Position numbers and translations under genes: made by a program. 36,353 nucleotides of DNA, from the UHGV virus genome UHGV-0234394; one strand, written 5' to 3'. Shown here piece after piece: positions 32,372 to 36,353 of this stretch (positions are counted from its first letter, which is position 1; each line of letters starts with the position of its first letter). The DNA comes from a virus. The notes beneath the pieces are model-generated. The model saw nothing but the letters and a program-made list of their open reading frames with translations, was not told the origin of the DNA and did no database searches.

Positions 32372-33157
32372 TCAATCACCTATGTGATTACGTTCTATAT
32401 ATCTTACAATCTTCTCTAAAGATTCAAATCCCCACCTCTGCATAGCATGTGGGAATTCTGTATATTCATAATCTTCTATGGTGAGATCCCATGTACTTTT
32501 CTTGAATTCACACTGATATAATCGCACAGTCTTGTTTAAAACCAACCCTTCTAACACACTGCTTTTCTTAATGATTTTGTCAATGTCTTTATTGTTAATC
32601 CCAATGTAGATAGCTGTTACCGAACTTAAATCAGTTATCTTGTCAATTAAAATATTTTCTTGCTTTTGTAATAGCCCCACTCGCTTTATTATTCTAACTT
32701 CTTCTTCATATTTCCAATGCAATGATTTAGTAAGCAATAATTTACTAATTACATCAGCGCTATAAATGTTTTCTTGACTGATTTTTAGTTTACTTTTTAT
32801 TCGACTCTCTAAATAATTAATGTCACCTTTCTGTGCCGTAATTAGGCATTTTTCTTCATCATCAAACCCTGCCCTTTCTGTGTCAATTGCTACAACAAAC
32901 CCCTGATGTTTATCAGCATAATGTGACCACATCAGTACATTGAGAGGATTTTTAGAAAGGCATAAGCAGGCAACATTTTGATTGATCTCCCCCCTCATAG
33001 CTAATGGTTCAAGCGATTCACCATCTAATGAAAGTTCATAGCCATAGCTTTCAAAAGGATCATTAAACTCACTATATGGAGTGAATTTTATAGAGATGTA
33101 ACCATCTTTAAAAAATCGTTCCAATGATGTCTTATCTATATATTTATACAGAATCAT
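32372..33157 (-). CDS. AT-rich accessory protein of unknown function (about 261 aa), N-terminal LYKY motif
   Basis: Track ORF 32372..33208 begins with TTG; first ATG gives MILYKYIDKTSLERFF; strongly AT-rich versus flanking D and ogr; convergent with D. Confidence 0.6.
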   Translation of the reverse strand: MILYKYIDKTSLERFFKDGYISIKFTPYSEFNDPFESYGYELSLDGESLEPLAMRGEINQNVACLCLSKNPLNVLMWSHYADKHQGFVVAIDTERAGFDDEEKCLITAQKGDINYLESRIKSKLKISQENIYSADVISKLLLTKSLHWKYEEEVRIIKRVGLLQKQENILIDKITDLSSVTAIYIGINNKDIDKIIKKSSVLEGLVLNKTVRLYQCEFKKSTWDLTIEDYEYTEFPHAMQRWGFESLEKIVRYIERNHIGD

Positions 33158-33352
33158 AATATATTCAGAATTAATTATAGGTGTTATCAGTATACAGTAC
33201 TTCAACAAGTAGATGTAAAGATCCCATTTAAACGTTCCTCCTCAATACGCGGATTAAACAAATTAAAGCATCTTACTCAAAATGGACCATCAGTTGGATT
33301 TAGAGCCAACACAACCTAGAATAGCGGCAGCACCACGTTAAGGGAGGTCGCT

Positions 33353-33613
33353 ATGTTCCGTTGTCCGCTTTGTGGCGCATCTGCCCGTATCCGCACCAGT
33401 CGTCCGGAAAATGATTCAAACACCGTGCGACAAAAGTATTACCAGTGCAACAACCTGGAATGCGGCGTATGCTTCTCAACACTGGAAGCTTTCCATAAAT
33501 TCACATCGAAACACGCCTCCGGCGTTCACTCTTCAGAAGGTATCCCGTGGCATGAGCTGCCAGCTTCACACAGGGGAAACAATCAGATGAGTTTGCCTTT
33601 ACCTCAGAATTAA
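33353..33613 (+). CDS. ogr: late transcription activator, Ogr/Delta zinc-finger family
   Basis: MFRCPLCG...YYQCNNLECG four-Cys pattern as in P2 Ogr; GGGAGG SD. Confidence 0.85.
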   Translation: MFRCPLCGASARIRTSRPENDSNTVRQKYYQCNNLECGVCFSTLEAFHKFTSKHASGVHSSEGIPWHELPASHRGNNQMSLPLPQN

Positions 33614-33701
33614 CAGGCAGAATTGCCGGAGTAACAAAAAAGCGATAGATTACGCGCGGGTGCCTTTCGGCTGATGGTCGGAGGGAATACCCGAAGGCCA
33701 G

Positions 33702-33938
33702 ATGTGGAAAGGCCCCGGAAAACATTTCTGTTTAACCGAGGCCCTAACACTTCTTACCTTCGCAAGTAGAAGGTTAGCGCCTCTCCTCTCAGGAGACAAG
33801 CGTTATGACGCAAATTCCGTTAAAAACCCTGTTACTTTGCATAACTGCGGTAGCGATAATCTGGATCCTCCACACATCACCGTGCGAGTTACGATTCAGG
33901 TTTGCTGGCACGGAAATTGCGGCATTCTTACTATGTAA
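33702..33938 (+). CDS. mok: mok-like leader ORF overlapping hok
   Basis: 78-codon ORF in a different frame spanning nearly all of the hok-like gene, the arrangement seen in hok/sok loci. Confidence 0.45.
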   Translation: MWKGPGKHFCLTEALTLLTFASRRLAPLLSGDKRYDANSVKNPVTLHNCGSDNLDPPHITVRVTIQVCWHGNCGILTM

Positions 33939-33945
33939 TAAGTAA
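33805..33945 (+). CDS. hok: Hok/Gef-family type I toxin (46 aa)
   Basis: MTQIPLKTLLLCITAVAIIWILHTSPCELRFRFAGTEIAAFLLCNK: TM helix plus the conserved C-E-(I/L)-R...E-(V/I)-A-A-F core of Hok/Gef; AGGAGA SD 8 nt upstream. Confidence 0.8.
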   Translation: MTQIPLKTLLLCITAVAIIWILHTSPCELRFRFAGTEIAAFLLCNK

Positions 33946-34033
33946 GATAACCGCGACGGGGGAGTAATCCCCCGTCAATCGGTTGCTAAGGTTGGTCGAA
34001 ACGGCACCCTATCTCACAGACATGAACAACAAA

Positions 34034-34065
34034 CCCGCAGCGTAAAAACTGCGGGTTTTCTTTTT
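34034..34065. terminator. intrinsic terminator (functional on both strands) followed by a second perfect hairpin at 34066-34089
   Basis: cccgcag-loop-ctgcggg with T-rich runs on both strands; adjacent 10-bp stem ggtgccctca/tgagggcacc. Confidence 0.65.
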
Positions 34066-34112
34066 GGTGCCCTCACAAATGAGGGCACCATACATAAGCA
34101 ATAGGCATAACA

Positions 34113-34147
34113 GATCAATGCAATAAATCCGATCGATAAAAACGATC
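34113..34147. promoter_or_regulatory. cluster of three GATC sites upstream of com (two inside a GATCGAT direct repeat)
   Basis: GATC at 34113-34116, 34131-34134, 34144-34147; 50-80 bp upstream of the com start. Confidence 0.5.
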
Positions 34148-34194
34148 GATTTGTTATCATATCGGCAGCAGTAACCACACAAGAGGTGCCGCAA

Positions 34195-34392
34195 ATGACG
34201 CAAAATGTACGATGCAAAAATTGCAACAAACTACTTGCCCGCGCCTCATTTCACTACATTGAAATAAAATGTCCGCGCTGCAAAACACTTAACCAGATAA
34301 CGAGAGCCATCGAGCACCCCACACACATGAGGAGTTATGACCGTGGGGATCGCAATCCAGCACCAACCAGCACATACACCGGAACACACTAA
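34195..34392 (+). CDS. com: Com-like zinc-finger translational regulator
   Basis: MTQNVRCKNCNKLLARASFHYIEIKCPRCK...EHPT closely parallels Mu Com (RCKNCNKLL, IEIRCPRCK, EHPT); AAGAGG SD; 3' end overlaps the methyltransferase start. Confidence 0.8.
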   Translation: MTQNVRCKNCNKLLARASFHYIEIKCPRCKTLNQITRAIEHPTHMRSYDRGDRNPAPTSTYTGTH

Positions 34393-35128
34393 GGTTTATC
34401 AGACTGACAATGCCACGCTCTGTCGTGGGAATGCGCTGGAAATATTGCCGCTGATTGAGCCAGAAAGCATTGATGCCTTAATCACTGACCCGCCTTACAG
34501 TTCGGGTGCGACACACAAGGCCGGACGCACCAACCAGGGCAGCCATGCAAAATATCTGAACGGCGAGAACCTTCACCGCTTTGATGGGTTCGCGGGTGAA
34601 AACATGGACGCCCGTTCGTGGGCTTACTGGACACAATTATGGATGGCACAGGCACACCGCGCAGTCAGGCCGGGCGGTTATGCCCTGGTATTTACTGACT
34701 GGCGACAACTACCAGCTTTAACCGATGCGTTTCAGGCCAGTGGCTTTACATGGCGCGGCATCATTGCGTGGAACAAAGGGAGGGGGTCACGAACACCACA
34801 TACCGGGTATTTCCGGCATCAGTGCGAATACATCGTCTGGGGCAGCAAAGGCCATTTAGATAAATCGCCTTCGGGACCGTTCGACGGCTGCATGACGTTC
34901 CCGGTTATCTCGTCAAAGAAAATGCACCCGACCGGAAAACCAGAAGAACTAATGGCGGAACTGGTCAGGACTGTGAATAGTGGCGGAACAGTCCTTGATC
35001 CTTTTATGGGGTCAGGGACAACGGGTGTGGCTGCACTGAAAGCAGGACGCAAATTTATTGGTATAGAAACCAGTGATCATTATTTTGATGTAGCAACACA
35101 ACGGCTCAAAACGGCGATCGAACCATAA
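34337..35128 (+). CDS. DNA methyltransferase, beta-class (DPPY before FxGSGT), N6-adenine or N4-cytosine
   Basis: ITDPPYSS near the N-terminus and LDPFMGSGTTGVAAL near the C-terminus; alternative GTG start at 34343 has better SD spacing. Confidence 0.8.
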   Translation: MTVGIAIQHQPAHTPEHTKVYQTDNATLCRGNALEILPLIEPESIDALITDPPYSSGATHKAGRTNQGSHAKYLNGENLHRFDGFAGENMDARSWAYWTQLWMAQAHRAVRPGGYALVFTDWRQLPALTDAFQASGFTWRGIIAWNKGRGSRTPHTGYFRHQCEYIVWGSKGHLDKSPSGPFDGCMTFPVISSKKMHPTGKPEELMAELVRTVNSGGTVLDPFMGSGTTGVAALKAGRKFIGIETSDHYFDVATQRLKTAIEP

Positions 35129-35172
35129 GACAAAGCCCGCAATGTTGCGGGCTTACTCTACCTCTCGAAAAT

Positions 35173-35195
35173 GTGGTCACTGCGTGGACATACGC
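35173..35195. repeat. candidate attR core (gtggtcactgcgtggacatacgc)
   Basis: Matches 169-193; lies between the methyltransferase terminator and the flk promoter region. Confidence 0.5.
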
Positions 35196-35357
35196 TGATA
35201 CAAATCCTTTTATATCAATAAATTAAATCTTTGTTTTTTTCATCAACAAGGATTTTCACGTTTGTGTTACCTGTATGAGACGAGAGTTAACCAGACAAGT
35301 GTGCCATAATCTCGCGGCCAGGCATACTTGCGAAGATTTCAGGTATAAGGATACGTA

Positions 35358-36353
35358 ATGATACAACCTATTTCCGGCCCTCCTCCTGGGCAACCACCAG
35401 GTCAGGGAGATAACCTGCCGTCTGGCGCGGGCAATCAGCCTTTATCCAGTCAGCAACGTACTTCGCTGGAAAGCTTAATGACGAAAGTGACCTCACTGAC
35501 GCAACAACAAAGAGCAGAACTGTGGGCGGGTATCAGGCACGATATTGGTCTGTCGGGAGATTCACCGCTGCTTTCGCGTCACTTCCCTGCCGCTGAGCAT
35601 AATCTGGCGCAACGTCTGTTGGCCGCGCAGAAAAGCCATTCTGCCCGCCAGCTTTTAGCGCAATTAGGGGAGTATTTACGTCTGGGGAATAATCGTCAGG
35701 CGGTCACGGATTATATCCGTCATAACTTTGGTCAGACGCCGCTGAATCAGCTCTCACCGGAGCAATTAAAAACCATTCTCACCCTGTTGCAGGAAGGGAA
35801 GATGGTTATTCCGCAACCACAGCAGCGCGAGGCGACCGACCGTCCTTTATTACCGGCGGAGCACAATGCGCTCAAACAGCTGGTGACCAAACTTGCGGCA
35901 GCAACGGGGGAACCCAGCAAACAGATCTGGCAATCGATGCTGGAACTTTCCGGGGTGAAAGATGGCGAGTTAATTCCAGCGAAACTGTTTAACCATCTGG
36001 TGACCTGGCTACAGGCGCGTCAGACGCTAAGCCAGCAAAATACGCCGACGCTTGAATCACTACAGATGGCGCTGAAACAACCTTTAGATGCCAGTGAACT
36101 GGCGGCGTTATCGGCATATATCCAGCAAAAATATGGCCTTTCTGCGCAATCATCGCTTTCTTCTGCCCAGGCCGAGGATATTCTTAACCAGCTTTATCAA
36201 CGGCGGGTTAAAGGGATTGAGCCGCGTGATATGCAACCGCTGCTTAATCCTTTTCCACCGATGATGGACACGTTGCAAAATATGGCAACGCGTCCCGCGC
36301 TGTGGATACTGTTAGTCGCGATTATCCTGATGCTGGTCTGGCTGGTTCGTTAA
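35358..36353 (+). CDS. flk: flagellar regulator Flk-like protein with C-terminal membrane anchor (chromosomal flank)
   Basis: 331 aa, Pro/Gln-rich N-terminus (MIQPISGPPPGQPPGQ) and hydrophobic C-terminal tail (ALWILLVAIILMLVWLVR), as I recall for enterobacterial Flk. Confidence 0.65.
   Translation: MIQPISGPPPGQPPGQGDNLPSGAGNQPLSSQQRTSLESLMTKVTSLTQQQRAELWAGIRHDIGLSGDSPLLSRHFPAAEHNLAQRLLAAQKSHSARQLLAQLGEYLRLGNNRQAVTDYIRHNFGQTPLNQLSPEQLKTILTLLQEGKMVIPQPQQREATDRPLLPAEHNALKQLVTKLAAATGEPSKQIWQSMLELSGVKDGELIPAKLFNHLVTWLQARQTLSQQNTPTLESLQMALKQPLDASELAALSAYIQQKYGLSAQSSLSSAQAEDILNQLYQRRVKGIEPRDMQPLLNPFPPMMDTLQNMATRPALWILLVAIILMLVWLVR

Follow-up and report, generated by a model that had tools for sequence, protein, structure and literature searches.

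How does a gene for a DNA methyltransferase come to lie behind the control gene of phage Mu's DNA modification system, and could the Mu-type controls still act on it there? The question is raised by the right end of UHGV-0234394, a virus genome of 36,353 nucleotides (hereafter the window), in which a com gene overlaps the 5' end of a methyltransferase (MTase) gene downstream of three GATC sites. A sequence-only reading had described this locus as a Mu com/mom-style module with a methyltransferase in place of Mom. We consider it probable that a P2-like phage has taken up a portable com cassette of the Mu type between ogr/hok and attP, that the cassette is joined there to a compact adenine MTase of the beta class, and that the module works by the mechanism set out below. 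In kind the module is already known, and it is annotated in RefSeq and in phage Chuche; copies in Escherichia coli RefSeq genomes carry the product names 'Com family DNA-binding transcriptional regulator' and 'DNA-methyltransferase'. Our literature search found no paper on this E. coli P2-like version, on its operator-over-promoter layout or on its specificity. The features on which the argument turns are the following, with positions counted in the window:

34101-34147, no strand: candidate Dam/OxyR-type operator, matched twice by the OxyR consensus over 37 bp (from 34101 and from 34110, overlapping)
34113-34116, 34131-34134 and 34144-34147: GATC1, GATC2 and GATC3, spaced by 18 and 13 nt
34133-34160, plus strand: predicted sigma-70 promoter, with a -35 TCGATA at 34133-34138, a 16-nt spacer and an extended -10 TGtTATCAT at 34152-34160
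34195-34392, plus strand: com, ATG at 34195, 65 aa, with a Shine-Dalgarno (SD) sequence AAGAGG at 34181-34186 (8 nt upstream)
34302-34320, plus strand: candidate Com target on the mRNA, GAGAGCCAUCGAGCACCCC, the counterpart of the Mu 19-mer GAAUGCCUGCGAGCAUCCC (14/19 identical)
34317-34348, plus strand: predicted translation inhibition hairpin, with an outer stem CCCCAC (34317-34322)/GUGGGG (34343-34348) and an inner stem CAUGA/UUAUG
34343-35128, plus strand (annotated ATG at 34337, in frame): beta-class DNA methyltransferase, putatively of the N6-adenine type

In the mechanism that we propose, transcription would start from the extended -10 sigma-70 promoter, whose -35 and spacer lie inside the three-GATC OxyR-type operator. 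Un- or under-methylated GATCs would allow OxyR to sit on the promoter and keep it shut, whereas full methylation by Dam would exclude OxyR and admit RNA polymerase. The bicistronic mRNA would yield Com first. The MTase start (GUG 34343, AUG 34337 and part of the SD sequence) would be locked in a stable hairpin. Com would then bind the adjoining GAGNNCC-N3-GAGNNCC site, which shares nucleotides with the 5' arm of the hairpin, the hairpin would open, and the MTase would be translated. By methylating phage DNA before packaging, the enzyme would let the progeny escape restriction in the next host, and the double lock would keep a potentially harmful MTase low in the lysogen.

Com, its RNA target and the start-codon hairpin

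The assignment of the upstream open reading frame (ORF) to the Com family was borne out by the profile search. Its product matches the Pfam family Zn_ribbon_Com (PF10122) with an E-value of 9.5e-12 and 44.6 bits (gathering cutoff 22.9), and the PHROG 'gpCom control of modification' with 2e-17. Identity amounts to 53% with Mu Com and to 61% with the Com of one SP18-type Mu-like prophage, and the zinc ligands C7, C10, C26 and C29 are invariant in an alignment with the Mu, SP18-type and Smp131 Com proteins. Its tblastn neighbours come from Mu, D108, SfMu, Pseudomonas B3-like phages and the P2-like Stenotrophomonas phage Smp131. Judged by sequence, the window Com is a true homologue of the Mu Com zinc-ribbon translational activator. 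The overlap of about 55 nt between com and the MTase gene also stands, at 56 nt when counted from the ATG at 34337 and 50 nt when counted from the in-frame GTG at 34343. We would like to note that the RefSeq name of this protein (WP_001353016.1, window 34195-34392), 'Com family DNA-binding transcriptional regulator', conflicts with the RNA-binding translational role and with the RNA target described here. Published work has Mu Com bind RNA and activate translation (PMC6483171, PMC3299994), and the RefSeq label is probably wrong.

The published Com target comprises the Mu 19-mer given above and a motif from systematic evolution of ligands by exponential enrichment (SELEX), GAGNNCC(N)2-3GAGNNCC, which forms a short hairpin with a C-G closing pair and a hexaloop; in Mu it adjoins a translation inhibition structure that holds the GUG start of mom (PMC6483171). 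The SELEX motif in the form GAGNNCC(N)3GAGNNCC has a single exact match in the window, GAGAGCCATCGAGCACC at 34302-34318 on the plus strand, where 0.05 matches are expected, and the match lies at a place homologous to that of the Mu site. We gathered 89 distinct Com loci from genomes and viral contigs (individual loci are cited below by L numbers), and a relaxed form of the motif is present in 80 of them. When 43 distinct Com loci were aligned, the four-pair helix of the target was paired in 91.9% of cells, with compensatory changes at three of the four pairs and a covariation score of 0.509, as against 0.219 in shuffles (none of 500 shuffles scored as high). Neither this target nor the inhibition hairpin is represented by a family in Rfam.

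Directly 3' of the Com site lies the predicted inhibition hairpin, whose CCCCAC arm shares its first nucleotides with the last of the Com motif. The SD sequence of the MTase gene, GAGGAG at 34328-34333, straddles the inner stem (5' half) and the apical loop (3' half, GAG), and both AUG 34337 and GUG 34343 are base-paired. RNA folding thus agrees with the earlier expectation of a hairpin that occludes the start codon, the stem of 34317-34348 pairing both candidate starts. The 46-nt segment that contains it has a predicted free energy of -15.8 kcal/mol and a z-score of -2.3 (4 of 200 shuffles were as good), the CCCCAC/GUGGGG stem appears in both the minimum free energy (MFE) and the centroid structures, and in a model transcript of 294 nt none of the outer-stem pairs falls below a probability of 0.99. 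Equivalent arms are found in Mu (CCCAC/GUGGG, the GUG being the annotated mom start) and, as identical CCCCAC/GUGGGG arms, in the SP18-type and Citrobacter-type cassettes; the loops of these hairpins differ in length and sequence, and the three cargo families are unrelated. We take the predicted window hairpin to be homologous to the Mu translation inhibition structure. A hairpin variant in Neisseria-type loci shows a compensatory change, GCAUCC/GGAUGC (L014) as against GCAUCG/CGAUGC (L026).

The same region bears on the choice of start codon. The SD sequence is spaced 9 nt from GUG 34343 and 3 nt from AUG 34337, the AUG is lost and the GUG kept in L082 (71% Com identity to the window), and both Mu mom and the C5-MTase cargo start at a GUG homologous to GUG 34343. 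For these reasons the true MTase start is probably GUG 34343 (261 aa) rather than AUG 34337 (263 aa).

The identification of the downstream ORF (34337-35128) as a beta-class MTase with a DPPY motif was upheld by Pfam and PHROG profiles and by its motif order. It matches N6_N4_Mtase (PF01555) with 2.7e-33 and 116 bits (cutoff 26.7) and phrog_67 with 2.3e-81, and DPPY at aa 51 precedes FMGSGTT near aa 221, which is motif IV before motif I, the beta-class order. A DPPY rather than an SPPY/F motif favours N6-adenine as the target, and we infer an adenine-specific enzyme with an anti-restriction role. The cargo is also, as had been claimed, a methyltransferase rather than Mom: N6_N4_Mtase is its only Pfam match, with none to the Mom family PF25680, and it does not match Mu Mom, whereas the Mom cargos of other loci do. 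The MTase family is large, with more than 7,400 relatives at E <= 1e-10. Those in temperate phages include Bpm of Bordetella phage BPP-1 (53% identical) and the Smp131 enzyme (46%), and further relatives occur in phages of Ralstonia, Burkholderia, mycobacteria and Staphylococcus. Among solved structures the best relative is the compact, site-specific M1.HpyAVI of Helicobacter pylori (5hek, 2.5e-21, aligned end to end); the relatives in the PDB include 5hek, 6pbd, 1g60 and 1eg2, and CcrM and others align in motif I only. Neither non-specific methylation nor a recognition sequence could be assigned by homology: the Hia5 family is of the alpha class, M.EcoGII-type enzymes share core motifs only and the best PDB relative is site-specific. 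No methylome, recognition-motif or expression report for this P2-like E. coli MTase was found in the literature.

The promoter, the GATC operator and competing explanations

The predicted promoter at 34133-34160 is the only sigma-70-like site in 33600-35400, matching 9 of 12 hexamer positions, and would place +1 near 34167. Its -10, TG(t/g)TATCAT, is kept in all loci of the window lineage, including L082 and the alleles with GATC deletions. GATC2 touches the -35 and GATC3 lies in the spacer. Two types of activator-dependent promoter were sought and rejected. An exact search for TGT-N12-ACA, as expected of an Ogr-dependent late promoter, gave nothing upstream of com, the only nearby match (34270-34287) being inside com, and the -55 region inspected by eye holds an Ogr half-site only. 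As for a site for the Mu C activator, there is no TTAT-N6-ATAA dyad, and TAACCACAC, shared with the Mu -35 region, lies only 23 nt before the com ATG, too close to serve as a -35 here.

The three GATCs were correctly placed within 35 bp (34113-34147), starting at 34113, 34131 and 34144, and they form the only such triple in the window. The cluster alone is not statistically striking, since at least one arises in 23% of random placements of the 94 sites. We rely instead on spacing, register and conservation: an exact 18/13 spacing, the same as in the Mu mom operator, has an expectation of 0.0006 per window. Across the prophage GATC is depleted: the 94 sites compare with 133 +/- 9.5 in dinucleotide-preserving shuffles, none of 100 having fewer, which makes the local triple more conspicuous. 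We also scanned 72,634 window positions with the OxyR consensus ATAGnTnnnAnCTAT-N7-ATAGnTnnnAnCTAT, scored out of 20. Scores of at least 14 occur only at 34101 and 34110, both 15/20 and both on the GATC triad. By the same measure the proven OxyR site of Mu scores 13/20, in the same register as in the window, with GATC1 at motif position 4, and the agn43 operator of E. coli K-12 (GATC spacing 19/13) scores 14/20. L082 keeps the triad, its spacing and the 15/20 OxyR score despite diverged spacers, and GATC2 and GATC3 are kept at -64 and -51 from the com ATG in SP18-type and Citrobacter-type cassettes.

Several observations nevertheless weigh against the mechanism proposed above. In L079-L081 and L007 a 31-bp deletion joins the positions of GATC1 and GATC3, removing the -35 and GATC2, so that no GATC is left in L079-L081 and one is left in L007; L053 has two, having lost GATC2 by a point change. 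All five keep the TGTTATCAT -10 and intact com and MTase genes, which argues that GATC control is dispensable for maintenance of the module. The operator overlaps the core promoter, unlike that of Mu, so the regulatory logic may differ, and the com promoter looks constitutive in sequence. Upstream of com no C or Ogr site was found that could trigger late lytic expression. On the RNA side, one of the four Com-target pairs in the window lineage is A-A (three of four are canonical), and the target helix is not in the ViennaRNA MFE fold of the window sequence. The arms of the inhibition hairpin are invariant in all enteric lineages, where they also code for His-Pro-Thr of Com, and as they never vary they show no covariation. 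The MTase is not close to any characterised non-specific enzyme. More generally, it is from sequence that we infer that OxyR binds, that Dam matters and that Com is needed, as well as where transcription starts.

The same parts could serve another end, namely an epigenetic phase switch in the lysogen like those of agn43 and gtr, in which competition between Dam and OxyR would set up heritable ON and OFF subpopulations; the module would then have a lysogenic-conversion or 'phasevarion' role, and late lytic anti-restriction would not be its main use. Such a switch would be in keeping with an extended -10 promoter that has nine hexamer matches and neither a C nor an Ogr site, with an operator that overlaps the promoter as repressor-type OxyR sites do, and with an 18/13 layout close to the 19/13 of agn43, which itself lies on a cryptic prophage. 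P2-family morons beside att are, moreover, typically expressed in the lysogen. Yet all characterised Com-gated or comparable phage MTases are silent in lysogens, it would be strange for a conversion gene to be put under a translational lock as well, alleles without GATCs exist, and the literature search gave no methylome or expression report for this MTase. On balance we regard the phase switch as rather unlikely. The GATC-less deletion alleles, persisting as they do in otherwise intact modules, could also be read in favour of a constitutive orphan MTase with site specificity, in which the GATC cluster, a relic of the Mu-derived cassette, would play no regulatory part today, and Com and the hairpin would merely set a low level of translation. 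That a three-GATC cluster is not improbable, as the random placements show, and that the enzyme is compact, like the site-specific M1.HpyAVI, would fit with this. What speaks against a leftover is that the 18/13 spacing and the OxyR register are retained at only 71% Com identity with diverged spacers, that the triad bears the two best OxyR matches in 36 kb, and that GATC is otherwise depleted in the prophage; we find a constitutive orphan enzyme quite improbable.

It could further be asked whether Com acts on RNA at all, or instead as a DNA-binding transcriptional regulator on the GATC inverted repeat (CGATCG-N7-CGATCG). The RefSeq/PGAP product name says as much, and the inverted repeat at 34130-34148 could be a protein-binding site. 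The documented activity of Mu Com (PMC6483171, PMC3299994) is, however, that of an RNA-binding translational activator, the RNA motif occurs exactly once, at the homologous place and covarying as an RNA hairpin, and we found no evidence of DNA binding for any Com. A DNA-binding Com would therefore come as a considerable surprise. Returning to the captured com cassette, which we prefer, its expression could be triggered either by agn43-like bistability in lysogens or by titration of OxyR by replicating phage DNA. As a tentative and rather unlikely extension, the cassette may have been rewired from the activator-dependent late operon of Mu to a self-contained epigenetic switch with a constitutive promoter buried, as in agn43, in a three-GATC OxyR operator, the MTase being bistable or phase-variable in P2-like lysogens, or being triggered by OxyR titration upon phage DNA replication. 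If the MTase also methylates the adenine of GATC, its own promoter would be locked ON; and if the switch reading is true, one methylase (Dam) would gate a second one through an OxyR switch and an RNA lock.

Related cassettes, prophage context and significance

Among 127 Com loci, the gene after com encodes a beta-class N6_N4 MTase in 46, Mom in 41, a C5-cytosine MTase in 11 and a D12 (Dam-like) MTase in 9; the downstream ORF calls of L012, L014 and L025 have no Pfam match, are probably in the wrong frame and were not used. In the SP18-type loci (L005 2001-3207, L008 and L083-L119), near-identical Com proteins precede either Mom or a C5-cytosine MTase (PF00145). Divergence among these loci starts right after the GUGGGG start-codon arm, which suggests from the sequences that the cassette is portable and that cargo is exchanged at the start-codon hairpin.

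Among the closest known systems is com-mom of Mu, and the claim of a Mu-like arrangement holds, with refinements. The window and Mu share a Com with the same four cysteines, a com gene overlapping the 5' end of the modification gene, a 19-nt Com target abutting a CCCAC/GUGGG hairpin with a GUG start, and three GATCs with 18/13 spacing in the same register on an OxyR-like site. The likeness does not extend to the promoter: in Mu the GATCs lie at about -58 to -89, and a C site stands between the operator and a poor promoter (-35 ACCACA, a 19-bp spacer and a T-run), whereas the window has no C site, no T-run and no 19-bp spacer, and its GATCs stand 27 nt nearer to com, on top of the -35 and spacer. 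The cargo of Mu is Mom (PF25680) and that of the window a Rossmann-fold beta-class methyltransferase; Mu is transposable and the phage of the window P2-like. The closest Com relatives are in the SP18- and Citrobacter-type Mu-like prophages (L005, L008, L083-L119; 59-65% identity). Like the window, they have an exact SELEX-type motif, the CCCCAC/GUGGGG hairpin and GATC2 and GATC3 in a CGATCG-N7-CGATCG repeat. Unlike it, they carry Mom or a C5-cytosine MTase, lack GATC1 and belong to Mu-like phages; the -10 of the SP18 type is weaker than that of the window, and L008 has gin upstream.

A com gene with an MTase in the place of mom has been published for FluMu (Hin1523), Pnm1 (Nma1821), Hia5 and phage B3 ORF47/48 (Drozdz et al. 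2012, PMC3299994); adenine MTases of the FluMu, Pnm1 and Hia5 type are silent in lysogens, and Com sites have been predicted at the 5' ends of their genes (PMC3299994). These modules are in transposable phages, unlike that of the window. The Hia5/Hin1523-type enzymes are Dam-like (alpha/D12), with FxGxG N-terminal and DPPY C-terminal; the motif order in the window is the reverse and the architecture unrelated. D12-class cargos (PF02086) were found in other Com loci, for example L011. Neisseria/Eikenella-type loci differ from the window in having no upstream GATC cluster and a GCAUCC/GGAUGC hairpin. In Stenotrophomonas and Ralstonia Peduoviridae (for example Smp131 gp05/gp04), which are P2-like, a Com-like 'translational regulator' overlaps a beta-class N6_N4 MTase that is 46% identical to that of the window; this module, however, follows the portal gene Q, its Com reaches only 32-37% identity, an 18/13 GATC triad is missing, and the alternative RNA pairing is a different one.

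Outside the Com loci, agn43 (flu) resembles the window in having three GATCs in an OxyR site beside an activator-independent promoter on a prophage remnant, and in sequence blocks very similar to those of the window (ACGATCAAT...ATCGATCG...CGATCGAT). It differs in that its operator lies at and downstream of +1, in having no Com or translational gate, and in its adhesin cargo. M.EcoGII and M.EcoGI of lambdoid prophages (PMC5778455) are, like the window MTase, beta-class enzymes encoded by phages, and they stay silent in the lysogen and are presumed to counter restriction, as is proposed here for the window enzyme; overexpression of M.EcoGII does harm (PMC5778455). The M.EcoGII type (the phage 1720a-02 homologue) is only 22-31% identical to the window MTase, in core motifs only, with about 150 extra central residues, and its gene lies downstream of the antiterminator Q without com. 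No E. coli lambdoid phage is among the 224 phage records that match the window MTase at E <= 1e-20.

The placement of the module at the far right end of a P2-like prophage was also right. The window is a complete P2-like prophage. After int (159-1178) come the genes for replication, head and tail, then D, then a DUF2971 moron read from the minus strand, and then Ogr (33353-33613). At the right end, ogr is succeeded by a toxin locus of the hok/sok kind, and a pair of hairpins separates this locus from com, which is followed in turn by the MTase gene and attR. The features that bound the prophage and the module are these:

168-186 and 35172-35190, no strand: attL and attR copies of the att core (GTGGTCACTGCGTGGACAT), the repeat pair flanking the prophage
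34031-34058, plus strand: upstream intrinsic terminator, a bidirectional hairpin then a T-run, from the terminator scan
35133-35154, no strand: GC-rich hairpin directly after the MTase stop, with a terminator score on the minus strand and a weak T-run on the plus strand

As attR lies directly beyond the module, com and the MTase gene are the last cargo inside the prophage. Beyond attR, the host gene flk starts at 35358, and P2-like phages match only the attR-bearing part of the query. The terminator at 34031-34058 insulates the module from ogr/hok transcription, and the hairpin at 35133-35154 is likely a transcript end or an insulator before att. The free phage Chuche (Escherichia phage) has the order ogr-mokW-com-MTase-att-int, as in the window, and ogr and hok lie upstream in most IMG/VR loci of the window Com lineage (L048-L082), the five exceptions being L053, L055, L069, L077 and L082, in which ogr is outside the stretch or without a match. 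The order in Chuche and these neighbours indicate that the module is phage cargo and not host DNA. At a coverage of at least 80% of a 1.3-kb query, 170 of 5426 complete E. coli genomes (about 3%) carry it.

Some features of the surroundings may be recorded in their own right. Between ogr and com lies a hok/mok/sok-like type I toxin-antitoxin locus (33658-33945), with a hok ORF at 33805-33945 (NCBIfam HokA, 2e-06), an overlapping mok-like ORF at 33702-33938 and an Rfam sok match at 33658-33816 that scores 47 bits, under the gathering score of 59. Related loci have near-identical com-MTase modules behind either of two very different hok alleles, one with 100% and the other with about 48-50% amino acid identity. 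A hairpin at 34068-34091, GGTGCCCTCA-caaa-TGAGGGCACC, between the upstream terminator and the operator is kept across the lineage, and in L006 it reads TCCTCA/TGAGGA, a compensatory change of C-G to U-A. The DUF2971-family gene between tail gene D and ogr (32372-33208, minus strand, 278 aa; phrog_1762, of unknown function) has the look of a moron, and Chuche does not carry it there. In E. coli TUM2820 (L001 4704-5792) the module is 100% identical to that of the window, and an insertion sequence ('integrase core domain-containing protein') that the window lacks stands between ogr and hok. L007 (NZ_JBQPOM010000071.1) is titled Vagococcus sp., a Firmicute, and holds an ogr-hok-com-MTase block like that of E. 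coli, in which the identity of Ogr is 100% and that of Com 92%; the label is likely due to contamination or misassignment.

For the family as a whole, these comparisons mean that the Mu com control cassette moves between unrelated phage types and has been joined anew, precisely at the GUG-GGG junction, to four or more unrelated DNA-modifying enzymes, namely Mom, C5, D12 N6-adenine and beta N6-adenine. With the module in about 3% of complete E. coli genomes, the annotation of Com and of the MTase start matters; and as the MTase is likely silent and conditionally expressed, standard lysogen methylomes may miss it. The window version, being without the C-activator layer, is simpler than Mu for studying how Dam/OxyR and Com cooperate, and offers a handle on why a modification gene should sense Dam methylation at all.

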